Assembly: GCA_965215565.1 (NCBI GenBank)
Contig: CBDCDZ010000004.1
Span: forward strand, 2,816,001-2,880,000
Length of the DNA stretch: 64,000 bases
Direction: 5' to 3'
Source of the DNA: Trueperaceae bacterium
Lineage (GTDB): Bacteria > Deinococcota > Deinococci > Deinococcales > Trueperaceae
Part shown: positions 21,436-62,867 of the stretch, piece after piece
Layout: each line of letters starts with the position of its first letter
Position numbering within the stretch: position 1 is the stretch's first letter
Notes under the pieces: model-generated
The model's input: the letters and a program-made list of their open reading frames with translations, nothing else
What the model was told of the DNA's origin: nothing
The model's database searches: none
Made by a program: the position numbers and the translations under genes

Positions 21436-21846
21436 TAGCACTTCCAAAACATACTGAGACAGAGTGTCGCTTCTCCCGGAGGTGCGCAAAGCCTCCGTCA
21501 GGAAGGGCTAGGCAAACGGTTACGTAAGTTTCCCGTAGGGAAAGTTTTGGCAATGCCAAAGGTCTCAGACGAAGAACTGTTCCGCTAGGTTTCGCCTGAG
21601 AGCGGAGTTTCACCTCACAGCGTGCGTGCTAATTTCTGAAAGCTGCGCAGCAGTCTGAAAGCCCGCAGGGACGAAGTTTTCCGATTACGTAGTTTTTGCG
21701 CAGCAAAAGGAAACAGTGTTTCTACAGTGAGGGCGTCTCTTCGCCTAGCGGCTAGCGGGAGCATATGCGACAGCGGTCCACGCGACTTAACTTTGTTCAC
21801 TCAAACCAGCTCCGAACGTTAGTGAGGCAGGCTTTGATACCTGTTA
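21436..21846 (+). mobile_element. MITE-like element, copy B, expanded to 411 bp by inserted hairpin modules
   Basis: TAGCACTTCCAAAACATACTGAGACAG ... GTGCGTGCTA ... CTCAAACCA ... TGATACCTGTTA. Confidence 0.75.
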
Positions 21847-21987
21847 ATTGATCCGTACCACAGGTGAAGATGGAAGAGAGAAAAGGGTGGCGTCCGAGTC
21901 CGCGGCTAAACCCCTACACACTATTCGAGTGAAAAGCTTCGCCGCGCCTTGATAGACCGCGTTGTTACGCTCGAGTGGGAGGACTAG

Positions 21988-22497
21988 ATGATCAGATTAC
22001 TTTTGGCTTCAGCATTGCTTTTCACTTTAGCCGCTTGCGCACCAGGAATGGAAGGGAGCAGTGCCTCGAGCGCGTTCGACGTGAGGGCGGGGCCTATCGT
22101 GGTCTCTGACGCGGGCAGCTACTACGCTTCTTACCAAGTCGTGCCACAGGTATTTGGGCTCGACCCGGACGATTTTGCCACGGCGGTCGTGAGAAACCCG
22201 AGGAAGGGCAAAAAGACCTCAGCAAACATTACAAACCGCTTTAGCGTTACGAGCGCTTCGGTGCCGGAAGATTGGGAGGTTGCCCTCAACTCGGCGAGGT
22301 TGGTGAAAGAGGTCTCGGATGTGGGCAGCCGCTCGGTAAGCTACTACTACTGGCTCAATCTCACCTTCAAGATCAGTGTACCCGAAGACGTGGACCGCGG
22401 TATTCGGCGTTCGGCAGTGTCCGTTGAAGCGAAAGGGGGAGAGCAAAGGACGATTCCCCTCGACTTCCTCGTTCAGGAGGTCCAAGCTACCCGCTAG
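21988..22497 (+). CDS. hypothetical lipoprotein
   Basis: lipobox LAAC, GGAGG RBS. Confidence 0.7.
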   Translation: MIRLLLASALLFTLAACAPGMEGSSASSAFDVRAGPIVVSDAGSYYASYQVVPQVFGLDPDDFATAVVRNPRKGKKTSANITNRFSVTSASVPEDWEVALNSARLVKEVSDVGSRSVSYYYWLNLTFKISVPEDVDRGIRRSAVSVEAKGGEQRTIPLDFLVQEVQATR

Positions 22498-22511
22498 AGG
22501 GTTGTTTTAGT

Positions 22512-22552
22512 AGATAAAAATAGAGGAGATACGCTCTCCTCTATTTTTATCT
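22512..22552. terminator. bidirectional terminator
   Basis: 18-bp perfect inverted repeat between convergent genes. Confidence 0.8.
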
Positions 22553-23926
22553 TTACGAGCTGGACAGTTCCGCCTCTTTCGTCCGCCGCTGCGCCATGTA
22601 GGTATCCGAGACGAGCTTTTCGGTGCGGTCCGCGATCTCGGCAGGTGAGGGCTGCATGTCGGTGATGAGGCGCGCGTGGCGGTCGAAGGTGAGGTAGCCG
22701 TACGCCCAGTTCATAAAGGCGTTGACGCGGTTCTGATAGCCGGGCAGGTAGACGAGGTGTAAGAGAAGCCAGGAGAGCCATCCCATGAAGCCCCGAAAGC
22801 TGAAGCCGCCGAACTCCTCAGACAACTCCGCGACGCCTGCGTTGCGCCCGATGATCGCCATGATGCCTTTGTCGAAGTAGCTAAACGCCTCAGTTTCTCG
22901 CGCTTCGAGGTGCTGCTGAATTTGCTTCGCGGCGTGCTTGCCGCCCTGAATGGCGACTTGCGCGACCTGCGGGTGCATGTTGCCCTCTTCGTCTTTGCTG
23001 CCCGCAGAGTCGCCGATGACAAAGGCGTAAGGATGACCCGGAACGCTCAAATCTTGCTCGACTTTGACGCGGTAGCCGCGCTCGAGTTCCACGTCCATCG
23101 CCTCGACGACGGGGCTCGCGCGAATGCCCGCCGCCCACAAGAGCGTCTGCGTCGGGATGACTTCGCCGCTGTCGAGTTCGACCTCGTCCTCGCGCACCTC
23201 AGAAACGGCGGTGCCTAAGCGAATATCTACGCCGCGCCGCCGCAGCACCCGCTCGGTGTATTCCTGCGACGCCTCCTCGAAGGGACCGAGCAGCGCGTCC
23301 ATCATCTCAATTAAAACGATGCGGGCTCTCGAGACGTCGAGGTCAGGAAAATCTTTAGGCAACACGCGGTCGAACAGCTCCGAGAGCGCGCCCGCCATTT
23401 CCACGCCGGTTGGACCGCCGCCAACTAAGACGAAATTGAGGATGCCCTCGTCGATCAGGCTCGGGTCCGCGTTGGCGCGCTCGAACTGGCGCAGCACGTG
23501 CGAGCGGATGTTGACCGCTTCGGTCAAGCTCTTGAGCATGAGCCCGTGCTTTTTAACGCCGGGGATGCCGAAGTCGTTGTAGACCGCACCCGTCGCCACG
23601 ATGAGGTAGTCGAACGCCACGCTCTCGTCGTCGGCTAGACTAACCTCTTTTTCGTCCCAATTGACGCCGTTGACCGTGCCCTGGCGGAAGCGGAAGTTCT
23701 TCTGGTGGCGAAAGATGGCGCGGACGGTATGCGCAACCTCGTCGGGTTCTAAACCCGCTGTAGCGACTTGGTAGATAAGAGGTTGGAAGGTGTGGTAGTT
23801 GTTCTGATCGATCATCAGGACTTCTACGGGCGCTCTGCGCAGGGCTTTAGCGGCGTAGAGCCCGCCGAACCCTGCCCCGACGATGACTACGCGCGGCTGC
23901 CGACCTGTTGTGAATTCATGGGTCAC
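22553..23926 (-). CDS. ndh: type II NADH dehydrogenase-like FAD oxidoreductase
   Basis: GAGFGG, GGGPTGVE, AQVAIQ; start moved to GTG 23926 after GAGGAGG. Confidence 0.9.
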   Translation of the reverse strand: MTHEFTTGRQPRVVIVGAGFGGLYAAKALRRAPVEVLMIDQNNYHTFQPLIYQVATAGLEPDEVAHTVRAIFRHQKNFRFRQGTVNGVNWDEKEVSLADDESVAFDYLIVATGAVYNDFGIPGVKKHGLMLKSLTEAVNIRSHVLRQFERANADPSLIDEGILNFVLVGGGPTGVEMAGALSELFDRVLPKDFPDLDVSRARIVLIEMMDALLGPFEEASQEYTERVLRRRGVDIRLGTAVSEVREDEVELDSGEVIPTQTLLWAAGIRASPVVEAMDVELERGYRVKVEQDLSVPGHPYAFVIGDSAGSKDEEGNMHPQVAQVAIQGGKHAAKQIQQHLEARETEAFSYFDKGIMAIIGRNAGVAELSEEFGGFSFRGFMGWLSWLLLHLVYLPGYQNRVNAFMNWAYGYLTFDRHARLITDMQPSPAEIADRTEKLVSDTYMAQRRTKEAELSSS

Positions 23927-24003
23927 GCTTAAACCTCCTCTGGTGATGTTGCGCGGTGACGCTACCTCTCGTAACGCCGTGGAACGAAGCTTCAGTACAA
24001 GTA

Positions 24004-24135
24004 TAGCAATCAACATAAGTACTGATTGGAATAGCGCAAATATCATTCTCAAATGTGCGTGCTGCACGGTGTTCTACATCGTGAGAGCGTTGCTCCGCAA
24101 AACTTACGTACACTCAAACCAAATGATACTTGCTA
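24004..24135 (+). mobile_element. MITE-like element, copy C (one 22-nt insert)
   Basis: TAGCAA...TTGCTA ends; GCAAATATCATT/AATGATACTTGC stem; GTGCGTGC; CTCAAACCA. Confidence 0.75.
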
Positions 24136-24310
24136 TATAACGTGCAACGTGTCGTCACTATTCGTAACAGGGTCTCGGATCACTGAGAGGCTCGAGCCTT
24201 ATGTGCGAAGCGCCAAAGTGCTACCCCGCTCTTCAGCATTCTCGCTACCCAACATAACGTCTAAATGCGCCTGGATTTGTATGCGGTTGCGCCAACGTCG
24301 GACTTCGGCG

Positions 24311-25159
24311 CTAGCCTTCTTGCACCATTTTGAGCGCGATGGTGCGACCTGTCGGCGTATCTGCAATTCCGCCTTCGCCCGTCTCGCGCAGTTCCGGCGG
24401 CAGGCTCCGCCCGACGGACGCCATCGCCGAGACTACCTCATCGGGCGGGATGAAGGACTCCAGACCCGCCAGCGCGAGCTGCGCCGATGAGACCGCGTGG
24501 ACGCTAAAAAAAGCGTTGCGGCTCACGCAGGGCACCTCGACGTAGCCGCCTACCGGGTCACAGACTAAGCCGATGGTGTTCATGAGCGCCATCGCCGCCG
24601 CGTGAACGCTCCTGCGCGCGTCGCCCCCCAAAAGCTCGCAGACCGCCGCCGCCGCCATCGCCGCCGAGGAGCCTATCTCCGCCTGACACCCGCCTGTCGA
24701 ACCGGCGATGAACATCTGCTGTGAGATGATCTCGCCGACGCCCGCCGCGAGCGCGACGGGACGCAGAAGTTGCTCGTCCTCCAAGCCTAGATGGTCCGCC
24801 ACGCCTAAGAGCGCACCGGGCAAGGTGCCCGCGCTGCCCGCCGTGGGCGCGGCGACAATGCGCCCCATACGGGCGTTTTCTTCGTTCACCGCCATCGCGT
24901 AAGCTTGCACGCGCTTGAGGAGCGGGGCGTTGAGTTTGTCGTCTGCGTCATGAAGCGTTTTGGCGTTCCACCCGACCATCCCGGTGCGGCTCTTTTTGTC
25001 TGAAGCCAGTCCTCTTCGCACTGAGTCGCGCATTTCCTTAACTCGAGACCGTAGCGCCCCTAGAAATTCCTCCTGAGCCGCATCATCGCCTTCAAAGGAG
25101 TCCACGAGGACCGCGTCGGAGGCTAGCCCCTCGACTTCAGAAAGCTCGGTTAAGTTCAC
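24311..25159 (-). CDS. sdaAA: L-serine dehydratase alpha subunit
   Basis: [42 protein letters not shown]. Confidence 0.95.
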
Positions 25160-25162
25160 GCC

Positions 25163-25855
25163 TCACCCCGCATCTCGCCCTGTCACTTCCTGACCTCGCA
25201 TCACCTCGGGTAAAAAGCGCAGCCAGTGGATGTAGGGCACGTGGGTCAGGTAATCCAGCACGTATTGGGAGAGCGCACGGTCTACCTCGACGGACATCAT
25301 AGCGAAGCCGCCGCGCTTGCGCCGCGCGCAGTGCAGCGTGGCGATGTTGACCTCGTCGTCGGCGATGACCCGCGCCACGCGCGCGATCACGCCGGGTTTG
25401 TCCTCGTGTTCTAAGAGGAGCGTGTGGTGTGCGCCCGAAAAATTGACGTCGAAGCCGTTCACCTTGAGGATGCGTACCAGACCGCCCCCTAGACTCGAGC
25501 CCATCACTTGGACCTCTTCGCCAGAGTTCGAGAGTCGGATGCTGACGGTGTTCGGATGCACGTCGCCCAAATCTTTGGTTGCAAAGATAATCTCTAAGCC
25601 CTGCGCCTGAGCAAGGTCTAAAGCGTTTTGAATCCGCGCGTCGTCGGGGTAGTAACCCATCAGGCCCGCCGCTAGCGCGAGGTCCGTGCCGTGCCCCTTG
25701 GCGGTTTTGGCAAAGGAACCGTGCAGCGTGAGCGTCGCCGTTTCAGGTTCACGGATAAGGGTGTGCCGTGCTAAAAGGGCGAGGCGACACGCCCCCGCAG
25801 TGTGGCTGCTCGAGGGCCCTACCATCACCGGACCGATCACATCTAGTAGGCTCAT
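25163..25855 (-). CDS. sdaAB: L-serine dehydratase beta subunit
   Basis: GPVMVGPSSSHTAGA, HPNT, C-terminal ACT domain. Confidence 0.95.
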   Translation of the reverse strand: MSLLDVIGPVMVGPSSSHTAGACRLALLARHTLIREPETATLTLHGSFAKTAKGHGTDLALAAGLMGYYPDDARIQNALDLAQAQGLEIIFATKDLGDVHPNTVSIRLSNSGEEVQVMGSSLGGGLVRILKVNGFDVNFSGAHHTLLLEHEDKPGVIARVARVIADDEVNIATLHCARRKRGGFAMMSVEVDRALSQYVLDYLTHVPYIHWLRFLPEVMRGQEVTGRDAG

Positions 25856-25867
25856 GCTGTCCTAAGT

Positions 25868-26254
25868 TTAGCGAGTGTGCTCCCTTTCGTTTCGCCCCGG
25901 TTTCATCACGAAGTACAAAACGATGGCGATGAGGGGGAAGACGAGCGCGCCTAGTCCCCACATGATTTTCTGTGGACGGGTCAGCGCGCCATTCTTCGAG
26001 GTCTGGTTCGCGATAAAGATAATGATCGCTGCCCACACCGCGATCGCGACGAGCAGAAGAAACACTTCGGTGCTCGTCGCCGGAAAGCTGAGCCCGACGG
26101 TGCCTAAAACAGTTGTGTGGCTGATGGCGTAAAACATAAGTATCCCCCAGTAAACTCGAGGATACAGAGGAAAATCAAGTTTTTCTGCCGTCAGCGTTGC
26201 AGTTATAAAAGCAGCAATGAGCAATGAGTTGAAAATCAAGGTCTTTTCGCTCAT
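25868..26254 (-). CDS. small membrane protein (PLDc_N-like C-terminus)
   Basis: hydrophobic helices; KIMWGLGALVFPLIAIVLYF; start uncertain because it overlaps the hairpin. Confidence 0.55.
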   Translation of the reverse strand: MSEKTLIFNSLLIAAFITATLTAEKLDFPLYPRVYWGILMFYAISHTTVLGTVGLSFPATSTEVFLLLVAIAVWAAIIIFIANQTSKNGALTRPQKIMWGLGALVFPLIAIVLYFVMKPGRNEREHTR

Positions 26255-26268
26255 TGCTCGTTGCTTTT
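26207..26268. repeat. GCAATGA heptamer hairpin, copy 2 (likely hup terminator)
   Basis: AAAAGCAGCAATGAGCAATGAGT...GCTCATTGCTCGTTGCTTTT. Confidence 0.6.
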
Positions 26269-26558
26269 TATTTCACCGACTCCTTGAGCGATTTGCCGGG
26301 TTTGAACGCGGGGTATTTACTTGCTGGGATGTCAATTTTATCGGTGGTGCCGGGTTTGACGCCCGTGCGAGCGCGGCGTTCGCGCACCTCAAAGGTGCCG
26401 AAGCCCGTAAGTTGCACCTTGTACTCTTGGTCTAGATGGGTGCCAATCTGCTCGATCATCGCGTCCACAACGGACTTGACGTCCTTTTTCTTCATGCCTG
26501 TTTCGTCAGAGACTTTGTCCACGAGGTCAGCCTTGGACACGGTTTTCGCCTTCGCCAT
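26268..26558 (-). CDS. hup: HU family DNA-binding protein
   Basis: VQLTGFGTFEVRERRARTG, PAFKPGKSLK. Confidence 0.95.
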   Translation of the reverse strand: MAKAKTVSKADLVDKVSDETGMKKKDVKSVVDAMIEQIGTHLDQEYKVQLTGFGTFEVRERRARTGVKPGTTDKIDIPASKYPAFKPGKSLKESVK

Positions 26559-27028
26559 CGTTGTTCCCTCCTTGAATTGTGACTTGGGGCGTACTTTAGC
26601 ACGAGAAATCGCAAGAAAGCAAGTCCCTCACGGGGCATACGAGTTTGGCGCGTCAGGGACGAGCTTTCTGGCACCTCTTCGCCCGAGCGCACCCTAAGTA
26701 AATGTAATAAACGCTGTCCTAGACGCAACTTTAGAGCAAGGTCAGGAAAATGTCAAGAGGTGTTAGTTGCACTGGCTCGAGCGGTGTAACTGTACGGTTC
26801 TATGTTGAGCGGATGCGTCACTATAGTCTGAACTGACCGATTAGGCGTTTACTCGAGCTACAGTCCTTACCTACAATTCGAGGGGGTGGCTCCCTCTGGA
26901 ATGCTTAGGGAATATGAAAGAAGTTGCAGACAAGAAAGAGGTTGTGGTCCCTATTTATTAGCGGGATTTGGATTCCACTTACGAGGTGCGTCGTTCGACC
27001 CTCGCCCACTACCCGATTCGGTTGCTCG

Positions 27029-27676
27029 TCAGCCTGACTCTTCCGCACCTTCAGGCAACAGCGCGTCGATACGCGCCATAAGTTCTTGGGTCAGCACGCT
27101 CATCTCTTCTCTCGAGCGTCCCTGGGGTGCGATAGGTTCACCGAAGGAGACGCGAAAGTTGCGCCCTTCGCGCCAGATAGCAGCGGGTAGAAGCGGCACG
27201 TTCGCGCGTTGTGCCAAAAACGCTGCGCCGCCATGCGCGTCCTTGTTGGCGGCTTTGCGTGTTCCCTGCGGGAAGATGCCCACCGCCAGCCCCTCTTTGA
27301 GGTAGCGCAGCGCCTCTTTGATCGCCCGCATGTCGCTCCGACTCCGGTCTACCGGAAACGCCATCAGATGCTCCGCCAGCCAGCGCATCGGCTGCGACTC
27401 GAACAGCTCTTTCTTCGCCATGAAGTGGACTTCACGCCGCGCGACGGAGCCGATCATGGGCGGATCAAAGGTGGAGAAGTGGTTGCTCGCGATGACCAGG
27501 CCGGGCTTTAAGGGAACGTTTTCGGCGCCGTAAACTTTAAGCCCTAAAAAGAGCCGCGCGTAGTTGCGCACAGCAAAGGCGGCGAAGTAGTAAAACCAGT
27601 GCGTGCGCAGGCGCGCAGGTGAGGTGAGGATGTCGTTTCGAGTCTCCCGCACGTCTCGTCGCGTGTTCGCCTTCAC
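27029..27676 (-). CDS. plsC: 1-acyl-sn-glycerol-3-phosphate acyltransferase
   Basis: NHFSTFD, FMAKKELF, FPQGTR; GTG start overlapping the upstream stop. Confidence 0.88.
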   Translation of the reverse strand: MKANTRRDVRETRNDILTSPARLRTHWFYYFAAFAVRNYARLFLGLKVYGAENVPLKPGLVIASNHFSTFDPPMIGSVARREVHFMAKKELFESQPMRWLAEHLMAFPVDRSRSDMRAIKEALRYLKEGLAVGIFPQGTRKAANKDAHGGAAFLAQRANVPLLPAAIWREGRNFRVSFGEPIAPQGRSREEMSVLTQELMARIDALLPEGAEESG

Positions 27677-28158
27677 CGCTTGCTCCGCTGCCTGTCCAGA
27701 TAAAGTGCGCCCAAAACGCCTACTAAAGCGGTGAGCCCGTGAACGCTCAACCATACAGTGGGCGTGGGGTCCCAGGGAAGGTCAACGGAGAAGAGCCGCC
27801 GCTGCGAGAGCTGCCATACGATCACCTGCGGGATAACGTAGAGCGCCGGCGAGATGACTACGGCGGCGTAGCGCCAGGAGAACTCCAAACCCAGCATGGC
27901 TAAAAGGCTCGAGCTTAGCACGATGGGCAACATAACGAGCCACGCCGTCGTGCCGCTGATGAGCCCGATCGCCGGGGTGAGCAGCGCGGTGGCGTAGGCG
28001 AAGGGCATCCCGGCGAACGCGAACGCTGCGTACGAAGCGAGCAAGATACCCAAACTCCGGTAGAGGATGGGGATGGGTGCGACCGCGCAAACTGCCGCCA
28101 ACAAAAACAGGAAGACGCCGACGAAAAAGATGCGAGCGGGCGGTGCGGTGCGTGTCAT
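27673..28158 (-). CDS. hypothetical membrane protein
   Basis: several hydrophobic helices; TATACT upstream. Confidence 0.7.
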   Translation of the reverse strand: MTRTAPPARIFFVGVFLFLLAAVCAVAPIPILYRSLGILLASYAAFAFAGMPFAYATALLTPAIGLISGTTAWLVMLPIVLSSSLLAMLGLEFSWRYAAVVISPALYVIPQVIVWQLSQRRLFSVDLPWDPTPTVWLSVHGLTALVGVLGALYLDRQRSKR

Positions 28159-28324
28159 AAGGTGCAGAGTATAGCAAGTATCGAAGTCAGTCTCCCGCTG
28201 GTCGGCGCGACCCGGCTTTCGCGAAGCGAAAAGTGGTTGGGGTCAGCCTGAGAGGAGACCCTATTTGGCGTATCCGCGAACCTCAGCAAGCGTGTCCTCA
28301 TAGCACTATCTGCAACGGCGCAGA

Positions 28325-31198: not shown

Positions 31199-31519
31199 GG
31201 TGTCTCCCTATAGGGTTGTGCTAGTTTTCTAGGTCGTATGCTCGGCGTGATTTTTTAAGCACGAAACTTCTCGAGGCTGCGCCGAAACGCGCCCTGAGCA
31301 AGTCGCATAAAGGTAAAAAATCTGGGTCATAGCTGTCTGAGTCATAACGTGGGGTAGGCACGTGGGCTCTAACAAATATAGGAGTATACCAGAGCGCGGC
31401 GGGGTAGGGGTAGTCTGTCTGGCACAACCGCGCCGCGCACGCTATAAAAAATGCAACACAAAAACCGACATTCACTCGGGGAATGTCGGTTGGGGCTCGA
31501 GCCCTACTTGGTGGTGTTC

Positions 31520-31801: not shown

Positions 31802-31811
31802 AATCTACCCG

Positions 31812-32315: not shown

Positions 32316-32324
32316 TTAATCCTT

Positions 32325-33399: not shown

Positions 33400-33510
33400 T
33401 AGCAGTTCCACGACACACTGAGACAGTTGAACGCAGGTATCATCTCTTAAAGTGCGTGCTAAACAGCGTTTCACAAAGTGAGAGTGTCTCTGACCAGATG
33501 ATACCTGCTA
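33400..33510 (+). mobile_element. 111-bp MITE-like element, copy D (reference, no inserts)
   Basis: TAGCAGTTCCACGACACACTGAGACAG...GCAGGTATCATC...GTGCGTGCTA...CTCTGACCAGATGATACCTGCTA. Confidence 0.85.
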
Positions 33511-33558
33511 ATTGTAGAGGAGGGATTCGAGAAATGACGTGGGATTCTAGGCTTTTAT

Positions 33559-33734
33559 TTGCAGGTATCATCTGGTCGCGAGCGCTCTCACCGAAGAGAG
33601 CGTCTTCTAGCACGCACACTGAAGATGAAATTCCGCTCTCAGGCGAAGCCGTCCCGCTAGGCTTCGCCTGAGAGTGGGATGGTTCTTCGTCTGAGACTTG
33701 CGACACTTTATCTCAGTTATGTCGTGGTGCTGTG
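33559..33734 (-). mobile_element. MITE-like element, copy E (reverse, about 65 nt of inserts)
   Basis: the reverse complement carries ACGACATAACTGAGA, GTGCGTGCTA and ACCAGATGATACCTGC. Confidence 0.8.
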
Positions 33735-33736
33735 TG

Positions 33737-33847
33737 TAGCAGTTCCACGACATACTGAGACAGTTGAGCGCAGATATCATCCCCCGAAGTGTGTGCTAGA
33801 CTGTTCATTTCTCGCTAAGGGTATCTCTGACCAGATGATACCTGCTA
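33737..33847 (+). mobile_element. 111-bp MITE-like element, copy F
   Basis: same blocks and length as D, with a different 26-nt centre. Confidence 0.85.
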
Positions 33848-37266: not shown

Positions 37267-37564
37267 TTACTTCATAAACTCCTTCGTCGTTTATTCCGTT
37301 ATCACCGGAATCCGTACTTGTTTCTACTCGCTGGAGAGTCCTCAACTGGGCGTATCATGCCGCTATAAATACCCGCCGCGTTCATTTGAAGATGCTACCT
37401 CCAGTTGAAGACTCTTTGCTCGGGATTAAACACGCGATAAAGTCGCGTGTTTAACCGGAAAGGGTATGAAGCGCCGCAGGTCACGCAGCCCCAAAGTAGA
37501 TAAAAGAGAAAAAGCCGGAGTGCTTAGCTCCAGCTTCCCTCTTTTTAAGAGTATCCAACAGTGT

Positions 37565-37747
37565 CTAGCCGCCGCCCGTCATCATACCGCCCGTCATCAT
37601 ACCGCCCGTCATCATACCGCCCGTCATGTCGCCGCCCGTCATGTCGCCGCCCGTCATCACGCCGCCTGTGTCCTGCGCAAAAGCGAAAACTGCGAGAACA
37701 GTGACGATCAGAATAGAAAGACCGGAGATGCTCAATGTCTTTTTCAT
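37565..37747 (-). CDS. secreted peptide made of TGGxM repeats
   Basis: AGGAG RBS, signal peptide ending AFA-Q, seven TGG units encoded by a 15-bp tandem repeat. Confidence 0.75.
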   Translation of the reverse strand: MKKTLSISGLSILIVTVLAVFAFAQDTGGVMTGGDMTGGDMTGGMMTGGMMTGGMMTGGG

Positions 37748-37941
37748 GGATTCTCCTTTCTGTTGGCTCTACACTATACGGACTCGTACGTAAGTAAAAA
37801 ATTACACTCGGTCCATATGGATAGGAGTATAGAAGCTACAACATGAGGTTACAAGAGGATTTTGATGAGATGAAAATGTGGTCAAGTTAAAGGCGCTGTT
37901 CATTTATGACTATTTGTCTATAGACCTGTAGGGCATACGAA

Positions 37942-37970
37942 AAAGCCTTCCTCGAGCCGAGGAAGGCTTT
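37942..37970 (-). terminator. intrinsic terminator
   Basis: AAAGCCTTCCTCG-AGC-CGAGGAAGGCTTT. Confidence 0.7.
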
Positions 37971-38169
37971 CTTATGTTAATTGAACTTAGAACGATTAGG
38001 CTGTGCTGACACTTGCCCTTTAAGAAAATCACTCATCGTCCCTACAAGGTAAACCTACGTACTTTATAGTCTTCTTATACCTTGCTTCTTGATTCCTACT
38101 CTTTGCTTTTTACTTTTTGCGTGCAGCAAGGCAAACCTTATAGAAGACAGTTCGAAAAGTCAACAGAGC

Positions 38170-38661
38170 CTAGTTGCCGCCCGTCATACTACCGCCTGTC
38201 ATACCGCCCGTCTCACTGGAGAGAAGTTGTCCGGCGTTGAGTAAAACCGTGCCGAGGTCCACGAGTTGCGCGACTTGGTCCCCTTCGGCTTGATCGGCGG
38301 CGTCGATAGTCCCTTCGCCGATAGAGGTGAGCAGGCGGCTGACCTCCCCTTGATCTATCGTCTCGGCGGAGAGCGCGCTCTGCAATTCTCCTAACTGATC
38401 GGCTAACGTGTTGAGCGCAGGATTGGACGCGCTGCTCAACGTGTTGCGCCAGCTCTCGATATTGCTCGAGGCGTTTTCTAAAGCGATGTCGGTGAGACCA
38501 CCCTCGAGGAGCGCCGTCGTCTCCGTCACCGACGGGGCGCTGCTATCCCCCGTCATGCCACCTGTCATACCGCCCGTCATGCTACCACCCGTCATCGTAC
38601 CGCCTGTTTGAGCAAAGGCGAGGCAGGTTAATAGAGCCAAAGTTATCGTTAGTATTTTCAT
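38170..38661 (-). CDS. secreted TGG-tagged helical protein (paralogue 1)
   Basis: signal peptide AFA-Q, TGGxM repeats at both ends, helical core shared with 38942-39466. Confidence 0.8.
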   Translation of the reverse strand: MKILTITLALLTCLAFAQTGGTMTGGSMTGGMTGGMTGDSSAPSVTETTALLEGGLTDIALENASSNIESWRNTLSSASNPALNTLADQLGELQSALSAETIDQGEVSRLLTSIGEGTIDAADQAEGDQVAQLVDLGTVLLNAGQLLSSETGGMTGGSMTGGN

Positions 38662-38682
38662 CTTTTCTCCTTTTCGGTGCTT

Positions 38683-38859
38683 TAGCAGGTCTCAGCCTTT
38701 CTTAGGCGAAGCCTAGCGGATTGGCTAGCTGGACCTCATCTAGTCTGAAACACTCTCACTGTAGAAAACGTTGATGAGTGCCCACTTTTGGAGATGAAGA
38801 CCAACCAAACCTCGTCTGAGAACTGCGGTAATCTGTCTCAGTGTGTTCTGGAACTGCTA
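38683..38859 (-). mobile_element. MITE-like element, copy G (reverse, 66 nt of inserts)
   Basis: the reverse complement begins TAGCAGTTCCAGAACACACTGAGACAG and ends CTGAGACCTGCTA. Confidence 0.8.
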
Positions 38860-38941
38860 CTTAGTGAGGTGAGCCCGATCAAATTTTGAGGACCGGACCC
38901 TCTTGTTCTCATTCCTGAATTGTGGCCTAAGTTGTGGCGCG

Positions 38942-39466
38942 CTAGTTGCCGCCCGTCATACCGCCCGTCGCGCCGCCCGTGACCGTGACGTCCTCGACGT
39001 CGATGTTCGAGAGGCTCGTGCCCGCGTCCGAGAGGAGCGTACCGAGGCTCGCGAGCTGCGCAGCTTCGTCGCCCTGCGCGCCCTCGGCTGCCGCGCTCGT
39101 TCTGCCGCCGAGTTCGGTGAGGAGCAAGCCTACCGAGGTTTGATCGATAGATTCGGTTTGTAGAGTCGCTTTGAGTTCTGCGAGCTGCTCAGCAATCGCG
39201 AGGAGCGCAGGGTCACCCGTACTCTCTAGTCGCATCTGCCATCCCTCAATATTGCTTATCGCTTGTTCGGCGGGTAAGTTCGTGAGACCACCCTCTAACG
39301 CCTCAATCGTGCCGCTAACCGTGGGTGATTCGTCGGTCATCCCGCCCGTCATCATGCCGCCCGTAGCCATGCCCCCTGTCATCGTGCCGCCCGTATCCTG
39401 CGCAAAGGCAGCGCCCATGAATAGTCCTAGAATAAACCCTGAAGTAAGTACGTGAATGAGTTTCAT
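38942..39466 (-). CDS. secreted TGG-tagged helical protein (paralogue 2)
   Basis: GGAGGAG RBS, signal peptide AFA-QD, LEGGLT..A.SNIE.W...L core. Confidence 0.8.
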   Translation of the reverse strand: MKLIHVLTSGFILGLFMGAAFAQDTGGTMTGGMATGGMMTGGMTDESPTVSGTIEALEGGLTNLPAEQAISNIEGWQMRLESTGDPALLAIAEQLAELKATLQTESIDQTSVGLLLTELGGRTSAAAEGAQGDEAAQLASLGTLLSDAGTSLSNIDVEDVTVTGGATGGMTGGN

Positions 39467-52608: not shown

Positions 52609-53094
52609 ATGGAATGGTCAGAGGTTATCGAAAACGAAACGCTACAAGACCTCCCCTTTAAGATCGAACTCAATGAATGGGGCAACATTGTCATGAGCCC
52701 GACTTCGAACAACCACAGCCTCATTCAAGGTGTCATCATGGGGGTACTGCACCAGCTTAAAAAGGAGGGACACGTCTTTCCTGAATGCTCAGTCCAAACG
52801 TCCAAAGGTGTAAAAGTTGCTGACGTAGCCTGGGTCTCAGCCAATTTTCTCTCTACGAACGGCGTGGAAACACCCTACAGCGTCGCCCCAGAACTCTGTA
52901 TTGAAGTAGTTTCACCCTCCAACTCAGACGCGGAGATGGCGCAAAAGCGCGACCTCTATTTTGCCAAGGGCGCAAAAGAGGTGTGGACATGTAGCCTAGA
53001 GGGACACGTCACCTTTTTCAATCATTACGGCGAGAGCGAGACCTCCCAGCTCTTCCCGAATTTTCCCAGCACCGTCGAGCTACCTGGCGTGTAG
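52609..53094 (+). CDS. Uma2 family endonuclease
   Basis: MSP...H, VADVAW, APELCIEVVSPSN, YFAKGAKEVW. Confidence 0.9.
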   Translation: MEWSEVIENETLQDLPFKIELNEWGNIVMSPTSNNHSLIQGVIMGVLHQLKKEGHVFPECSVQTSKGVKVADVAWVSANFLSTNGVETPYSVAPELCIEVVSPSNSDAEMAQKRDLYFAKGAKEVWTCSLEGHVTFFNHYGESETSQLFPNFPSTVELPGV

Positions 53095-53159
53095 CCTTCT
53101 GCGGGCACAAAAACCTCTCACGCTTTCTGTATAATCACCCTTAGTGAGCAGGAGGCATC

Positions 53160-55982: not shown

Positions 55983-56772
55983 CGACAAGTACACGTTTCA
56001 GCCCCGCCTCGTCGCGATTGACCTAGACGGCACGCTCCTCACCTCTTCGAAAGAGGTGACGCAACGTTCGGAAAGGGCGATTCGCGGGCTCTGCGCGAAG
56101 GGCGTCAAAGTCGTCCTCTGCACTGGACGCCCGCCGCGCTTTACAGAACACGTGGCGGAAGGTTTGGGGCTCCGCGATCTCGTCATCATGCATCACGGGG
56201 CGATCGTCTATGATTTCGTGCAGGGCGAGATGCTTTTTCACAATGAGTTGACTCAGAAAACCGCGCTCGAGGTCATCCGCACGATGCGTCAAAAACACGA
56301 CGGGGTGATGGTGGGGCTCGAGACCTCCTACGGCTGGTTTCATGACCAAGCGCTGTACGACTTGCGCCGCCCCGATCCCGCCCCGACGGGCGTCGGCGCA
56401 GCCGAAGACTTCGTCCGCGAAAACGTCACCAAGCTCCTCTTTCGCCATGTGGAGATGGACGCTAGAGCGTTCAGCCGCACCTTAAAAGACTTTGACGTCC
56501 ACACCACCTGGAGTTCGCCCGAGCTTTTAGAGGTCATTGCAAAGAACGTCAACAAGCGCGAAGCCTTGAAGCAAGTGGCGGCGGCGAGAGGTTTGGACGC
56601 GGCGGACGTGGCGGTCTTCGGCGATCAGAACAACGACGTCGAGATGCTCGCGTGGGCGGGTTTCGGTGTGGCGATGGGCAACGCGAGTGACGAGGCGAAA
56701 GAGGTGGCGGATAGGGTGACGGATACGAACGACGAGGACGGCGTCGCCAAGGTTTTAGAGGCTTGGTTTTAG
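55978..56772 (+). CDS. Cof-type HAD-IIB hydrolase
   Basis: AIDLDGTLL motif I lies upstream of the first GTG (56056); frame open from 55975; ATT 55978 proposed as start. Confidence 0.85.
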   Translation: MSDKYTFQPRLVAIDLDGTLLTSSKEVTQRSERAIRGLCAKGVKVVLCTGRPPRFTEHVAEGLGLRDLVIMHHGAIVYDFVQGEMLFHNELTQKTALEVIRTMRQKHDGVMVGLETSYGWFHDQALYDLRRPDPAPTGVGAAEDFVRENVTKLLFRHVEMDARAFSRTLKDFDVHTTWSSPELLEVIAKNVNKREALKQVAAARGLDAADVAVFGDQNNDVEMLAWAGFGVAMGNASDEAKEVADRVTDTNDEDGVAKVLEAWF

Positions 56773-56788
56773 AGGCCTGGTTGTAAAG

Positions 56789-57544
56789 ATGACGCTCATC
56801 GTTTTTGGCTACGGACCCATTGAGGCGAACAAGAATTTCAACCTCAATGTTTACGGACGCCTCAACGCGCTCGCAGCGGGAATGCTTTATCAACGTGACG
56901 AAACCGGGCGCATCGTCCCCACAGGTGGACGCACGGGCGGCGCGGGGCTCCCTTCCGAAGCGGAGGCGATGAAGCGGCATTTGCTACGCAACTTCGACCT
57001 CCCTGAAGAGGTCATCGTCTTAGAACACCAAGCGAGCGATACCGTCACCAACTTCGTTCACGTCGCGAATATTTTGGATGGTTTGGAGGCTCGAAGCAAT
57101 CTCACCTTCCTCGCCTTTGGCTTTCACTTGTCCCGCATCCGTCACCTCGCTGACCTCTTTGGCTTAGAAGGCGATTTCATCGCAGCGGAAGCGGTGGTTG
57201 GGGAACGCTCAGCGCGTCACCAGAAACTTTTACGGGACCTCTTGAATCTGGACAACGAAACATATCTCAAACTCCTCACGGGTCAAGTGCGCGGAATGCG
57301 CGGCTTGAAAGAGATACCCGAGTATTGGCTGCCGCCAGCGGCGCAGCTTCAGAGTGAACGGCGGCTCGAGTCCATCATGCAATCCATGCAGGTGCAGACT
57401 TTCTTGCGCTCACGGGGACTCAACCCAGCCGCGCCCACTGACTTCAAAGCTGTTCTTTCCGCTATCCCGCGCCGCTTTCCTGAACCGAAACCAGAGGATA
57501 GGAAGAGGGCTGTGCGCGAAGCTCGAGAGGTCAGCCTTGCCTGA
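56789..57544 (+). CDS. YdcF/DUF218 family protein
   Basis: TGGRTGG..SEAEAM, LEHQASDTVTN, FHLSR. Confidence 0.75.
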   Translation: MTLIVFGYGPIEANKNFNLNVYGRLNALAAGMLYQRDETGRIVPTGGRTGGAGLPSEAEAMKRHLLRNFDLPEEVIVLEHQASDTVTNFVHVANILDGLEARSNLTFLAFGFHLSRIRHLADLFGLEGDFIAAEAVVGERSARHQKLLRDLLNLDNETYLKLLTGQVRGMRGLKEIPEYWLPPAAQLQSERRLESIMQSMQVQTFLRSRGLNPAAPTDFKAVLSAIPRRFPEPKPEDRKRAVREAREVSLA

Positions 57545-57974
57545 AGTCGTCTTAGCCTTGGATGTGGGCGACGCCCGCATCGGCTTAGCGAGGGGTGAAG
57601 TCGGCTCGGCGTTCGCCTTTGGGCGCGGCTTCATCACCCGCAAAAAACTCAGAGATGACGTGGCTGAACTTCAAGAGGTCATGGGGCGCGAGGGCGCGTC
57701 GCTTCTCGTCATCGGCTTGCCTAAGCGGAGCGACGGAACAGATTCGAAGCAGACGGTGAAGGTGCGCAGTTTTTCCAAGGAGTTGGAGAAGCGCGGCTTC
57801 AGCGTCGTTTTAGAGGACGAACGCTTCACCACCCGCATCGCCACGCAGAACGTCACGCAGAGCGGGCTGCCCAAGACCAAGCGCCAGAGCAAGGGGCGTG
57901 TGGACGAGGCGTCGGCGGTCCTGATTTTAGAGAGTTATCTCGCTAGGCTTTCGTTCGAAAATGAGGTAGGCTAG
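57537..57974 (+). CDS. ruvX: RuvX/YqgF putative pre-16S rRNA nuclease
   Basis: LALDVGDARIGLA, IGLP, DERFTT, VDEASAVLILE. Confidence 0.92.
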   Translation: MPEVVLALDVGDARIGLARGEVGSAFAFGRGFITRKKLRDDVAELQEVMGREGASLLVIGLPKRSDGTDSKQTVKVRSFSKELEKRGFSVVLEDERFTTRIATQNVTQSGLPKTKRQSKGRVDEASAVLILESYLARLSFENEVG

Positions 57975-57979
57975 CTCAC

Positions 57980-59044
57980 GTGAGTGACCTATCAACCTCT
58001 TCACCGCGTCAGCGCTCTTCTCGACCTCTTGTGCGCGGCGTGCTCGTCATCATCTTTTTCGCGCTCGCCCTCGTGTTAGCAGGTATCCTCTTCGTGCGTC
58101 AGCAGCTCACGCCTGTAGACGAGGGCGCGGCGCAGACCACCGAGTTCGAAATCTTGCCGGGTTGGGGCGCGTCGCGGGTGGCGAGCGAACTTGCTGAAGC
58201 GGATTTGGTAAGGAGCGCGCGTTTCTTCTCGCTCTGGCTGCGCTTTGAGGGAACGGACACGCAGATCGGTGAAGGGCTCTACGATCTCTCTCCAGCGATG
58301 AGCGCCCACGAGCTTGCCGAAGCGTTGGAGGCGGGCGGGCGTCCGAGGGTCGCGGGCGTGACGATTCCCGAAGGCTTTCGCAGCGTGAGAGTGGCTTCGC
58401 GACTGGCGGAGGCGGGGCTCGGCGCGGAAGAGGTGCTGATGCAGAGCATCCTCTCGCCAGGAGGATTGCGCCCGAGCTACGTCCCCGAGGGCGTCGGCTT
58501 GGAGGGCTACCTCTTTCCTGCGTCTTACGAATTTCCGGTTCGCAGCACCGCTGTAGACGCCCTGGACGTCATGGTGCAGCGTTTCGAGCGCGAACTCACG
58601 CCGGAGATCGAAGCGGCGCTGACGTCCCTCAACTTGAGCGTCCACGACTGGGTCACGCTCGCCAGCATCATCCAAGCCGAAGCGGGCAACCACGAAGAGA
58701 TGCCCGTGATTGCAGGCGTCTTTTTGAACCGCTTGGACGAAGGGATGCCGCTGCAGTCCGACCCGACGGTGGCGTACGGTCTCGGCAAGAGGTTGCCTGA
58801 ACTCGACAGAAACGCAGGCGACTTCGAGGCGGAGCACCCTTGGAACACGTATGTCTTTGCAGGGCTGCCGCCGAGTCCGATTGGCAACCCTGGACGGGCG
58901 GCGCTACGGGCTGTCTTTACCCCTCAGCGCGTCAACGAGGCGAACGAACCTTATTTCTACTTTTTACACGGGCGCGGCGGCGAGTTTCGCCCTAATGTGA
59001 CCTTCGAGGCGCACAACCAGGACGTGCAGGAGTTTTTGCGCTGA
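57980..59044 (+). CDS. mltG: endolytic transglycosylase MltG
   Basis: TIPEG, LEGYLFP, LASIIQAE, LQSDPTVAY, GLPPSPI. Confidence 0.95.
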   Translation: MSDLSTSSPRQRSSRPLVRGVLVIIFFALALVLAGILFVRQQLTPVDEGAAQTTEFEILPGWGASRVASELAEADLVRSARFFSLWLRFEGTDTQIGEGLYDLSPAMSAHELAEALEAGGRPRVAGVTIPEGFRSVRVASRLAEAGLGAEEVLMQSILSPGGLRPSYVPEGVGLEGYLFPASYEFPVRSTAVDALDVMVQRFERELTPEIEAALTSLNLSVHDWVTLASIIQAEAGNHEEMPVIAGVFLNRLDEGMPLQSDPTVAYGLGKRLPELDRNAGDFEAEHPWNTYVFAGLPPSPIGNPGRAALRAVFTPQRVNEANEPYFYFLHGRGGEFRPNVTFEAHNQDVQEFLR

Positions 59045-59063
59045 GACAATCCTCGAGCCCCCT

Positions 59064-59465
59064 TCACTCAACGTCATAAAGCACTGAGCCTTCATACGGA
59101 GCTTCTAGTAGCGAGGCGAGCCTCGAGCCCAAATCTCCAACGTGCGCTTCCAACTTGTGACCGTTGGGGTCCGTGAAGTAGAGCGACGCGCCTTCGCTCT
59201 TATTCTCGTGCCAGCGCGACTCGGCGGAGATGACCTCTTCGAGTTGCCTCATCCCCTTCAGCGTCGTCGAAAAGGCGAGGTGGGTGTAGTCATCTCTAGG
59301 CGTAGTTGATGGGTCTAAGGTCAAACAGACCCAAGTATCACCGACTTCGAGATATGCACCCTTGTTCCAACGCGCCCGCAGCTTAAAGCCGATAGACGTG
59401 TAGAAACCTAGCGATATGCCCAAATCTTTTACGGCGAGCGTGATGTGGTTGAGCCCGGTCAGCAT
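59064..59465 (-). CDS. FosA-like VOC thiol transferase (fosfomycin resistance family)
   Basis: GLNHITLAV, GAYL..GDTWVCL, DYTHLAF, ENKSEGASLYFTDPNGHKLE.HVG.L.SRL. Confidence 0.8.
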   Translation of the reverse strand: MLTGLNHITLAVKDLGISLGFYTSIGFKLRARWNKGAYLEVGDTWVCLTLDPSTTPRDDYTHLAFSTTLKGMRQLEEVISAESRWHENKSEGASLYFTDPNGHKLEAHVGDLGSRLASLLEAPYEGSVLYDVE

Positions 59466-59485
59466 GTCTTTATTTTACGCTCAAC

Positions 59486-60154
59486 TTACCTTATCTGACG
59501 GCGGCGCAAAAAGGTGGACAAAGCGAGGCTCGAGACCAATAAGAGTGCCGACGCGAGCAAGTACCAGACGTTGATTTGGACGCCCTCTGTACTGAATTCC
59601 CCCTCGAGCGACGCCCCTGCTAGCACCCCGACGAGCAGCCCAGGAATCCCGCCGATCAATGTGGCGAGCATAAACGCCGTGAAAGAGATGCGCAGTGCGC
59701 CAGCGGCGTAATTGACCAAGTCGCCGGGCAAGAAGAGGAAGCGGCTCAGCAGAACGCTCTCAAAGGCGCGGGTGCGCAGCCGCTCGGTCCAGTATGGGCT
59801 CAGTCCTGGAATATCGCCCGTTCTGTTTCCCGCGAGATAGTGCCCGAAGAGGTACGCGAGCGCTGTGGAGAAAAGCGACGCGACGAGCGCGTAGAGGGAG
59901 CCCCACACCGCGCCGAAGAGAAAACCCGAGGCGACGGTTAAGAGCGTAATGGGCACGAGTAAAAAGGGACGAATGAGGTAGACGACGAAAAACACAAGGG
60001 GTCCCGTGACGCCGCCCCGCATGAACGAGAGCCAGCCTCCGAACAGCTCGAGCAGCGTCTCGTCTCGTCTTTGAACGTAGAGCCAGAAGAGGACGAGCGC
60101 CGTCAACCAGAGCGCGAGTATCACTTTAGACCACACCGAACGCTGAACTGTCAC
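59486..60154 (-). CDS. TVP38/TMEM64 (VTT/DedA) membrane protein
   Basis: RPFLLVP, GFLFG, RFLFLPGDLVNYAAG; GTG start inferred. Confidence 0.88.
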   Translation of the reverse strand: MTVQRSVWSKVILALWLTALVLFWLYVQRRDETLLELFGGWLSFMRGGVTGPLVFFVVYLIRPFLLVPITLLTVASGFLFGAVWGSLYALVASLFSTALAYLFGHYLAGNRTGDIPGLSPYWTERLRTRAFESVLLSRFLFLPGDLVNYAAGALRISFTAFMLATLIGGIPGLLVGVLAGASLEGEFSTEGVQINVWYLLASALLLVSSLALSTFLRRRQIR

Positions 60155-60799
60155 CTCTAAGAGTATGCCACGTGGAGGCGGCACGCTTAGGTCAGTGCGC
60201 AGCTTGCTCGAGTACGAGCAATACAGGCTGAACCGTAATGCTCGAGCCTGTGGACCTTCGCGGCTGATGGGCAGGGCAACTGTAAACTGCAAGTGAAGCA
60301 TCTGACAGTCGAGCTATCCTTCGACGTTGAGGCTGAGGAGGTAGACGCTTTAGCGATGACGTTGCCGACCTCTTGACTCGAGAGGTCAACCGAGCAGCTA
60401 TCTGTTTACGACGTGCTAGACGCACCTCATCTCATTGAGAACGGTTTAGTGAAGGCTCAACCCTTGTTCTAGGGGTGGTCTCTTTTCTAACCTCTTGTCA
60501 AAATTTTCTCAGTGCGCTTATACTTGCAAAGTTGTCCTGCAGCACGCATAATAGTGACTGCGCGGCGGCGTTAGCCCCTGCACCCTCCAACTCAAACCCG
60601 TCTCCTGCGTTGCTGAAACGTCCAACTTCAGTAGCGCCGGTCCATTCTTTTAAGCGGGCACGAAACGTAAACAACGTGTCTCTCGAGTACGTTGTTGTCC
60701 CTTGCTGCCTTGTTCTAAAAGCTCTTCCACTCCGCCCTTCGCTTCATCTGATCCTACATCTGATCCTTCGTCCTCTCCCCCTATTTTAGAGGTTCATCT

Positions 60800-62278
60800 A
60801 TGATTTCAATCACCAAACGCGAGTGGTTCAGCAACCTGCGCGGCGACATCTTAGCAGGCATCGTCGTAGCGCTGGCGCTCATCCCCGAAGCTATCGCCTT
60901 TTCGATTATTGCGGGCGTTGACCCGGCGGTAGGGCTCTACGCCGCGTTTTGTATTTCCGTCGTGACGGCGTTTGTGGGCGGGCGTCCAGGCATGATCAGC
61001 GGGGCGACGGGCGCGATGGCGCTCCTCATGACGGGGCTCGTGGCGAATCACGGGCTCGAGTACCTCTTTGCCGCCACCATCTTGACGGGTGTGATCCAGA
61101 TCGCGTTCGGCGTGACCAAACTGGCGCGGTATCTCAAGTTCGTGCCGCGCAGCGTCATGATCGGCTTCGTCAACGCGCTCGCGATTCTCATCTTCATGGC
61201 ACAGTTGCCGCAGTTTATCGGGGCGAACTGGCAGATGGTCGCGCTTGTCGCGGCTGGGCTGGCGATTATCTACGGGCTGCCCTACCTCACCGAAGCCGTG
61301 CCGAGTGCGCTCGTGGCAATCGTCGCGCTGACTGCGGTAGCGATCTTCGCAGGCGCAGACGTGCGCACCGTGGGCGACATGGGCGAACTGCCCACCGCGC
61401 TTCCCTTCTTCGGATTGCCCGCTGTGCCTTTTACACCCCAAACGCTCGCCATCATCTTTCCGGTAGCGCTCACGCTGGCGATTGTGGGGCTTTTAGAGTC
61501 GCTCCTCACCGCGCAGATCATCGACGATCTAACCGACACAACCAGCAGCAAAAATTGGGAATCGCAAGGGCAGGGCGTCGCGAACATCGTGACGGGCTTT
61601 TTCGGCGGGATGGCAGGCTGCGCCATGATCGGGCAGTCTGTTATCAACGTCACCTCGGGCGGACGGACTCGTTTATCCTCGCTGGTTGCGGGCGTGGCGC
61701 TCATCTTTATGATCCTGACGCTGCAGCCCTGGGTGCGCCAGATTCCGATGGGCGTCCTGGTTGCGGTGATGGTCATGGTGTCTTTAAGCACCTTCGATTG
61801 GTCGTCGTTACGCAACCTTGCCGTGATGCCCAAGAGTGATAGCATCGTGATGATTGCAACCGTCGTGACAACCGTCTGGACGCACGACCTCGCGCAAGGC
61901 GTACTCGTCGGCGTGGTACTCAGTGCGCTCTTTTTTGCGCGGAAGGTGTCGCAGCTTTCAGGGGTCTCGAGCACCCTCAGCGGTGACGGCACCACGCGCA
62001 CCTACCTCGTTACCGGAGAACTCTTCTTCGTCTCGACGCAGGAGTTCGTCACGGCGTTCGACGTGCAAGAGGATTTGGAGCGCGTCGTCATCGACTTGAC
62101 GCGGGCACATCTCTGGGACGGCTCCGCCGTTGCCGCCCTCGACAAGGTTGCGATTAAGTTCATGCGGCGGGGTGTTCATGTCGAGCTGAGAGGTCAGAAC
62201 GAGGCGAGTGACGCGCTCATCTCGCGCTTGGCGGTGCATGACAAGCCGGGGGCGTTAGAGGAGTTGGTGTCGCATTAA
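60800..62278 (+). CDS. SulP family anion transporter with STAS domain
   Basis: [33 protein letters not shown]. Confidence 0.95.
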
Positions 62279-62353
62279 GCTAGTGGAAACAGCGTTTTTG
62301 GCTTCAATTACGAGGTCTGAGGTTAAAGGATTGAGAGGTTGTATAGCAAGTAT

Positions 62354-62550
62354 TGGCAGTTCCAAGACATACTGAGACGGATAAGCGCTTACGGAAGTTT
62401 TGGCAACGCCAAAGGTCTCATTGCGCAGCAATAGCGGGATTTCATCATCGAATGTGCGTGCTAGTTGGGCACTTTTCGCAAAGCGAAACGTTGTTTCATC
62501 TAGTGAGCGTGTTGCTTCGCACAACTTCGTACACTCAAACCAAATGATAC
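62354..62550 (+). mobile_element. MITE-like element, copy H (four inserts; right end fused to copy I)
   Basis: GCAGTTCCAAGACATACTGAGAC, GTGCGTGCTA, CTCAAACCAAATGATAC. Confidence 0.8.
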
Positions 62551-62661
62551 AGCAGGTATCATTTGGTTTGGGCCAATCTGAGAAGAGAAAACACGCTCTA
62601 GCGCTCACTTAATTGTGATGATACTTGCGTGATTCACGCTCAGTACTTGTGTTGATTGCTA
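62551..62661 (-). mobile_element. MITE-like element, copy I (reverse, no inserts)
   Basis: reverse complement TAGCAATCAACACAAGTACTGAG...GCAAGTATCATC...AAACCAAATGATACCTGCT. Confidence 0.8.
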
Positions 62662-62713
62662 TACTTCTTTCTCAGTCCTTTGTTCTTTAGATTTTCCGCT
62701 GGTCTTATTTTAG

Positions 62714-62867
62714 TAGCAGTTCCACGACACACTGAGACAGTTGAACGCAGGTGTCATCCCTTAAAGTGTGTGCTAATTACGAAGTTTTCCGCAGGAAACA
62801 GCGTTTCACAAAGTGAGAGTGTGCCTGACGGCGTACTTCGTGCACTCTGACCAGATGATACCTGCTA
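62714..62867 (+). mobile_element. MITE-like element, copy J (copy D plus 21- and 22-nt inserts)
   Basis: nearly identical to D apart from inserts at 62776-62796 and 62823-62844. Confidence 0.85.

Follow-up and report, generated by a model that had tools for sequence, protein, structure and literature searches.

Copies of a 111-nt repeat in the genome of a Trueperaceae bacterium differ in length by steps of little more than twenty nucleotides, which raises the question of what these additional units are and how DNA of such a size comes to occupy so many sites. The stretch studied here (the window) is 64,000 nt long and covers G000:C4:2816001–2880000, where G000 is the source genome. The movement of elements of about 20 nt has been an open question since they were described in cyanobacteria, and this genome offers hundreds of filled and empty sites in one family of miniature inverted-repeat transposable elements (MITEs), plus empty orthologues in sister species. 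We find that the units, referred to here as modules, are very small mobile elements which insert repeatedly in the MITE, in other repeats, in their own members and occasionally in genes, and that insertion makes no target duplication and replaces one target purine, usually an A. The modules are among the smallest known mobile DNA, and this junction is a clue to how such DNA moves.

Discrete modules in a 111-nt MITE

The 111-nt host repeat occurs as about 550 copies and fragments in the genome. A profile built from window copies D and F gave 603 matches in 548 chains, 322 with both ends, and an anchor-based search of G000 recovered 299 full copies, 164 with an insert of at least 12 nt (copies with one or more modules are termed filled, and those without a module empty). 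The host is a MITE with a 3-bp target duplication, seen at 109 of 189 intact-ended copies (6 expected; maximum of 12 in 200 shuffles) and in agreement with two empty orthologous sites. It has inverted ends with a symmetry of about 6 nt, is present in four of 31 genomes (G000, G001, G002 and G005), and its orthologous sites in G001 are often empty. Neither G000 nor 2 Mb of G001 yielded an autonomous element with host ends, the IS630 remnants having other ends, and a search for an autonomous element with module ends also found none. We rejected the host as a TA-duplicating IS630-type element, as the duplication is 3 bp, and as a conserved structured RNA or mini bridge RNA, with an Rfam match absent within the window; consensus folding of 131 empty copies returned only the terminal inverted 12-mer, and the top covarying columns were subfamily differences.

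We note several further arrangements of these sequences. At G000:C4:804312 and 1994360 one host copy lies within a second one, and the terminal 23 nt of the host are repeated in tandem. Locus L007 (G000:C4:1932313–1935762) holds two IS630 remnants broken up by host copies and modules, and an IS630-type MITE of 103–104 nt, with ends matching the IS630 remnants, occupies host column 60 and is flanked by a TA duplication.

The preliminary description of the window had read the extra length of host copies as discrete units, and the distribution over the 299 full copies is indeed banded. The excess lies within 3 nt of zero in 133 copies (with one at −10), at 4–17 nt in one, 18–27 nt in 51, 28–41 nt in two, 42–52 nt in 34, 61–77 nt in 28, 86–99 nt in 24 and at 100 nt or more in 25, and no copy falls at 53–60 or 78–85 nt, so that the gaps at 4–17, 28–41, 53–60 and 78–85 nt together hold three of the 299. 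The proposed unit size of 21–24 nt stands for most net additions (205 of 216 single inserts add 21–25 nt), but single units span about 17–28 nt, and those of 17, 19, 23–25 and 27 nt are common. Fixed sites are reused as described, though there are five main ones (columns 35, 40, 63, 88 and 98–103) and not two. The suggestion that units of two helical turns preserve the phasing of the host was not borne out: 65 of the 164 filled copies lie within 1.5 nt of a multiple of 10.5, against about 29% expected from a flat spread, the common unit lengths do not keep to such a multiple, and host copies of 163 nt are still flanked by their own target duplications.

On the basis of their sequences, at least seven module families can be distinguished. 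Class I modules have an initial T, a 2–3-bp hairpin with a GNA loop and then a 3–8-bp hairpin, whereas class II modules start with CT or TT and have one hairpin and a conserved tail. The first stem of class I varies with compensation around the GNA loop (AC/GT, AG/CT, AT/AT, CT/AG and GC/GC), and the commonest class I heads did not occur in a shuffle. It should be noted that the TACG(N)AAGTTT sequence described earlier is not a constant head, as many units have a second 2–3-bp GNA hairpin within it; the covarying stems were described correctly. The commonest module grammar, the class Ia pattern, occurs 161 times compared with 1–9 times in three dinucleotide shuffles. GNA triloops dominate and some loops are GNRA tetraloops; in loop sets which include some chance matches, a C–G closing pair is found in 178 of 253 loops, and GNA or GNNA loops lie on the same strand 106 times and on the opposite strand 16 times. 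Modules also nest in the loops and stems of other modules, and one nested composite of 52 nt recurs about 20 times.

Modules are mobile and replace one purine

The earlier suggestion that the units parasitise this one host could not be maintained when the search was extended beyond it and into coding sequences, as 84 of 178 grammar matches fall beyond the host mask, where chance would give about 25. Class Ia occurs in 26 left-flank clusters, including heptamer arrays, other repeats and IS630 remnants, and the seven families together occupy 47 distinct target clusters, with modules that are identical letter for letter present between unrelated flanks and also in further species of the genus. 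Insertion polymorphism in relatives, which the preliminary description had proposed looking for, was found in three settings. In 800 kb of G001 we mapped 42 host loci, and among the 21 listed, four shared copies differ by whole modules; a 1.31-Mb alignment of G000 and G001 held 112 indels of 12–80 nt, including a class Ia module at a non-host site which is empty in G001; and a hicA gene (L181:427–666; a Pfam match below cut-off, adjoining hicB) has an in-frame 24-nt module which is absent from the orthologues in G002 and G005. The variant found in hicA occurs about ten times in G002. Compared with G002 and G005, this gene has not only the in-frame module but also a 2-nt deletion downstream of it, and is therefore probably a pseudogene.

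Transposition of filled MITEs has raised module copy number further. Filled copies have still moved, because target duplications are kept in 74 of 115 filled copies, at least as often as in the empty ones (45 of 86), and because near-identical filled copies, each with its own duplications, are found at different loci (four pairs). A reading in which each module entered each site only once, the rest being MITE amplification and gene conversion among copies, would explain these pairs, the roughly 20 occurrences of the 52-nt composite and the clustering of module presence on a host tree, where 25 gains and losses were needed compared with 31 for shuffled labels at column 35, 61 with 74 at column 40 and 57 with 73 at column 63. 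However, single entry cannot create 47 target contexts or the hicA insertion, which have no homology to the host, and between 72 and 97 of 205 near-identical host pairs disagree in module presence at columns 40, 63 and 88. The 57–61 changes needed for 68–84 filled copies at columns 40 and 63 (49–52 on another host tree) are far from a single gain, in a pattern where repeated insertion and gene conversion are not separable. Amplification and conversion explain part of the copy number and not the origin of the modules, and single entry is refuted as a complete account.

The modules have a narrow distribution. Class Ia was found in three of 121 genomes of the family, all of genus g1, and among 251 genomes class IIa is enriched over the control in the three from g1 alone, with a background level in all 248 others. 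Genome G047 enters both surveys as one of the negatives, and no conclusion depends on it. An exact 22-mer search of GTDB returned two loci, one in the Trueperaceae and one in the Methanosarcinales, the latter within the approximately one match expected by chance. The 25 viral and five metagenome pattern matches looked like chance, a plasmid BLAST with modules gave no match, and neither that search nor the exact-pattern GTDB scan returned a cyanobacterial match.

The junctions were examined in filled and empty partners sharing 12+12 exact flanks, as a first genome-wide indel search with 9+9 flanks was dominated by chance. Once tandem, hairpin-free and rare inserts had been dropped, 69 one-base replacements were counted, in which the replaced base was A in 26, T in 33, G in five and C in five (A or T in 59 of 69). 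When modules were oriented and flanks from G000 and 2 Mb of G001 pooled, the replaced base at 132 distinct flanks that have an empty partner was A in 118, G in 13, T in one and C in none, and over the 47 target clusters the replaced base was A in 38, G in eight and T in one. The same is seen at single sites: column 40 is A in 158 of 165 empty copies, and this A is kept at either junction in none of the 82 resolved filled copies (84 filled, two unresolved), and an orthologous pair in G000 and G001 also shows a module exchanged for an A. The A is truly lost in 61 of the 118 cases, because there the module ends in another base. Among events without loss, an A or T is adjacent in 164 of 211 against a null of 65%, although this is a weak test, and the targets have a loose bias towards G-[A]-C/G-G.

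The short copies are ancestral because deletion cannot restore the A. The preliminary description had named a continuous spread of lengths, local tandem duplication and random shortening of ancestral long copies as alternatives to mobile units; the lengths are banded, the inserts are unlike their flanks, and filled sites lack the A of 158 of the 165 empty ones. This leaves discrete ultra-small mobile units with a behaviour like that of the small dispersed repeats (SDRs) of cyanobacteria, as had been proposed. The replaced-purine rule is new here; literature searches turned up no base-replacing insertion of such size, although one may be in print nonetheless. One purine lost without duplication is a signature found with no fewer than seven unrelated module sequences; it limits the chemistry that may be at work, matches no transposase type known to us, and makes the mechanism directly testable with synthetic oligonucleotides.

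Possible routes of insertion

The best explanation we can offer falls a little short of an even chance when taken as a whole, and is that mobile mini-hairpins replace a purine by way of a single-stranded DNA (ssDNA) form captured in a gap by host repair. The moving form is rather likely to be a short ssDNA with one or two folded GNA mini-hairpins, belonging to the strand from which the A is lost. We infer a folded ssDNA donor, as the preliminary description had also suggested, from the loop type, from the preference of the GNA loops for one strand, from what is known of such hairpins, and from the failure to find a reverse transcriptase, no match to the RVT_1 domain having been found in G000; according to a passage in PMC13037366, GNA-type mini-hairpins withstand exonucleases and favour DNA, being far less stable when made of RNA. 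The purine would be removed by a glycosylase or by depurination, and processing of the apurinic (AP) site would leave a one-nucleotide gap into which the module would be joined by host repair and ligation enzymes, without a dedicated transposase. Nuclease resistance would let such fragments survive with fixed ends. Capture in this way by host enzymes is a possibility that we advance tentatively. It is more doubtful whether SDR-like repeats across phyla might generally be transposase-free selfish DNA of this kind, in which nuclease-resistant mini-hairpins mimic one nucleotide and are ligated into purine base-excision gaps. The junction signature may also explain the mosaic repeats in Deinococcus relatives and small in-frame gene insertions.

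A number of points weigh against this explanation. The module families and their orientation were defined after the replaced base had been seen, and the flank pairs in the junction counts are not independent. Modules with a final A make up the other 57 of the 118 A cases, and for these plain insertion 5′ of the A fits equally, but class I variants with a final G or C replace the base there too; family IIe replaces G in seven of 20; a 27-nt family is ambiguous, being compatible with insertion before GC with 2–3 nt of microhomology; and a looser test in G001 with 11+11 flanks gave A or T in only 53 of 92 events before inspection, most of the rest appearing by eye to be chance matches or slight variants of an empty site. 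Spontaneous depurination should affect G as often as A, and the strong reuse of the same sites with a loose target bias fits an enzyme that reads sequence better than random damage, just as restriction to one genus is more easily explained by a lineage-specific protein. The bases that serve as targets are no more unpaired than other occurrences of that base (0.58 compared with 0.61), which leaves the idea of an unpaired target unsupported. The folding energies of linear and circular modules are mostly unremarkable, and a circular dumbbell intermediate was dropped as these energies are uninformative. No intermediate or enzyme was seen in this analysis.

A dedicated transposase or recombinase that recognises the folded module and its target, and removes one base by its own chemistry, would account for the fixed module ends, the site reuse and the weak target bias, and we regard it as nearly as likely as gap capture because of this reuse and the restriction of the modules to one genus (three of 121 genomes for class Ia and three of 251 for class IIa). 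However, none of the seven candidate families tried tracks the modules, and the module-bearing genomes form a single clade. Y1 HUH domains were not found in the module-bearing G001 and G002 and are present in G005 and G051, both without class Ia; PDDEXK_3 was found in none of 31 genomes, SRAP in none of four, and DUF559 was not found in G000. RtcB occurs in 20 of 31 genomes and was not found in G002, and a four-helix-bundle protein is encoded in 11 of 31, including all three g1 genomes. The only Y1 HUH domain of G000 (L006, G000:C4:3786234–3786551) is in frame inside a large restriction-modification protein, and adjoins NKGL(K/Q)PL peptides whose coding sequence is an abundant palindromic repeat. 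One four-helix-bundle gene (L173, G000:C4:1308119–1308430) lies between purine-rich short repeats of the kind that receives modules elsewhere.

Movement of the modules as small RNAs copied back to DNA, with the lost A a branch point or a skipped base, is very unlikely. The GNRA tetraloops among the modules would suit this route, as would the presence of the four-helix-bundle family in all three g1 genomes, a family akin to the accessory protein of adenine-specific diversity-generating retroelements. The missing RVT_1 match in G000 and the absence of an Rfam match within the window speak against this route, and the dominant GNA triloops are far weaker in RNA, as a part of PMC13037366 reports.

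Mobilisation of the modules in trans by the IS110 bridge recombinase of this genome is, in our view, highly improbable. All seven near-identical IS110 copies of G000 (contig C4, e.g. L184 / L010–L016) lie inside the host terminal 12-mer at one TC core, column 40 is the internal twin of this 12-mer, the upstream non-coding end of the element has matches first to the left and right targets and then to the left and right donors, the arrangement of a bridge RNA, IS110 is also present in G001 and G002, and some IIa tails hold 7–8 nt matching the donor junction in reverse. Nonetheless, IS110 is unlikely as the mobiliser because its junctions keep the A and repeat the TC core, whereas modules lose the A, and most of the 47 module targets have no sequence in common with the bridge target. 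IS110 elements use a double-stranded circle (as described in a section of PMC11208160), which would be hard to form at about 22 bp. Modules as non-autonomous derivatives of IS110 were likewise rejected, as they lack the core repeat, the intact target and a match to the bridge guide. A separate element of about 85 nt with sub-terminal inverted repeats, at G000:C4:3238050, occupies this TC core in a 12-mer resembling that of the host.

Single entry of each module at each site, discussed above, is scarcely tenable given the unrelated targets, and the least probable account, in which inserts are made on the spot by slippage or fold-back synthesis (a few IIa tails are complementary to 3–4 nt of the left flank), is refuted because identical modules occur in non-homologous targets and in other species, tandem duplications having been filtered out before counting.

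Related small repeats and the copies in the window

The SDRs are reportedly about 21–27 nt long, with many dispersed copies, compensatory structure and insertion in heptamer arrays and longer repeats, and are said to be self-nesting and present or absent at homologous sites, without a known mobiliser; SDR1–8 are not known outside Nostoc-group cyanobacteria. SDR1–8 of Nostoc and relatives were reportedly described by Elhai et al. 2008 (Genome Res 18:1484). The modules resemble the SDRs in size, compensatory structure, targets, self-nesting and presence or absence at homologous sites, and SDR5 inserts between bases 3 and 4 of GCGATCGC (HIP1), next to an A, according to a passage in PMC4390886. 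The likeness described here is one of behaviour: the modules are found in another phylum, and their seven or more families obey one junction rule, the replacement of a single purine. We do not file them as SDR1–8 because of the different phylum and because the sequences are not comparable. The genome-wide repeat load of G000 is itself cyanobacteria-like, with heptamer arrays, GTAG-type palindromes, other families and a CRISPR-like repeat.

Closer in taxonomy are the mosaic small non-coding repeats (SNRs) of Deinococcus radiodurans, which a portion of PMC1978522 describes as hundreds of modular repeats and which belong to the same phylum as the modules, a likeness of description, and the IIa pattern is at background in the 248 non-g1 genomes. 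REP/REPIN-RAYT and IS200/IS605 systems share short hairpins, a lack of target duplication and a probable ssDNA form with the modules, which however have no GTAG/CGTC tag and no Y1 partner in G001 and G002. HUH insertion is also not known to lose a base. Some IS110 bridge-RNA elements target repeats, such as IS621 in REP (as stated in part of PMC11208160), and the IS110 of G000 targets the host MITE in just this way (7/7), whereas modules have no core repeat and no shared target and lose a base. The host itself, at about 111 nt, with inverted ends, a target duplication, hundreds of copies and empty orthologous sites, is similar to the bacterial MITEs ERIC, RUP, Correia and Nezha listed in a section of PMC3733652, but differs in having a 3-bp and not a TA duplication, an end symmetry of about 6 nt and no autonomous partner that we could find.

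The window holds host copies A to J. Copy A (7145–7253, plus strand) is diverged and empty, and lies outside the range of the preliminary description. Copies D (33400–33510, flanked by ATT/ATT) and F (33737–33847) are empty, 111 nt long and on the plus strand, and between them lies copy E (33556–33732, minus strand), which is 177 nt long and whose column 40 holds a IIa module plus two nested units. Copy G (38683–38859, minus strand) is also 177 nt, its inserts being placed at column 40 and within the terminal 12-mer, and the 66 nt added to both E and G, like the 300 nt added to copy B, agree with the lengths first described. The seven units named in C, H and J are all present with registers off by 0–3 nt, and the six hairpins quoted are found on the strands given.

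Copy C (24004–24135, plus strand; 132 nt) has a class Ib module on the minus strand in column 88 (24090–24112, net +22). Copy H (62354–62556, plus strand) has four modules: class Ia in column 35 (62389–62413, plus strand, net +24), class IIa in column 40, where 25 nt replace one A (62417–62441, plus strand, net +24), a class Ia variant with a first hairpin of GG-GCA-CT in column 63 (62465–62488, plus strand, net +23), and class Ib in column 88 (62512–62533, minus strand, net +21). Its right end overlaps the empty copy I (62550–62661, minus strand). Copy J (62714–62867, plus strand; 154 nt, flanked by TAG/TAG) lies upstream of rpsF and has a class Ia module in column 63 (62777–62798, plus strand, net +21) and a class Ib variant in column 88 (62822–62844, minus strand, net +22), without which it equals D except at 3 of 111 positions. 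Contigs of four read runs showed no module-only polymorphism. A contig of run X7 joins across 62278–62872, the whole H–I–J block, and because of this a relative without the MITE cluster upstream of rpsF is indicated; the other joints are paralogous host copies.

Copy B (21436–21846, plus strand; 411 nt, 111+300) holds approximately 11 nested modules over all five sites, as parsed by eye against the module families. Column 35 has a composite of a class I module and two nested inserts (21471–21560, plus strand), the outer unit being the same as that of H at 62389–62413, and within it a class I module sits inside the first (GGAA) loop of another class I module (21520–21542, plus strand). The column 40 composite (21564–21609, approximate ends, plus strand) is class IIa with a IIa-type module nested on the minus strand, and that in column 63 (21633–21713, plus strand) is class I with units of 19 and 17 nt (at 21635 and 21654) and a GAA-loop module (21685–21708). 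Column 88 has a minus-strand module with a plus-strand IIe-type insert (21736–21799, minus strand; insert at 21745–21787), and column 98 a class IId module (21810–21834, plus strand); the host A is gone in columns 40 and 98. Elsewhere in the window, three clusters of 15-nt tandem repeats lie within short open reading frames at 37552–39409.

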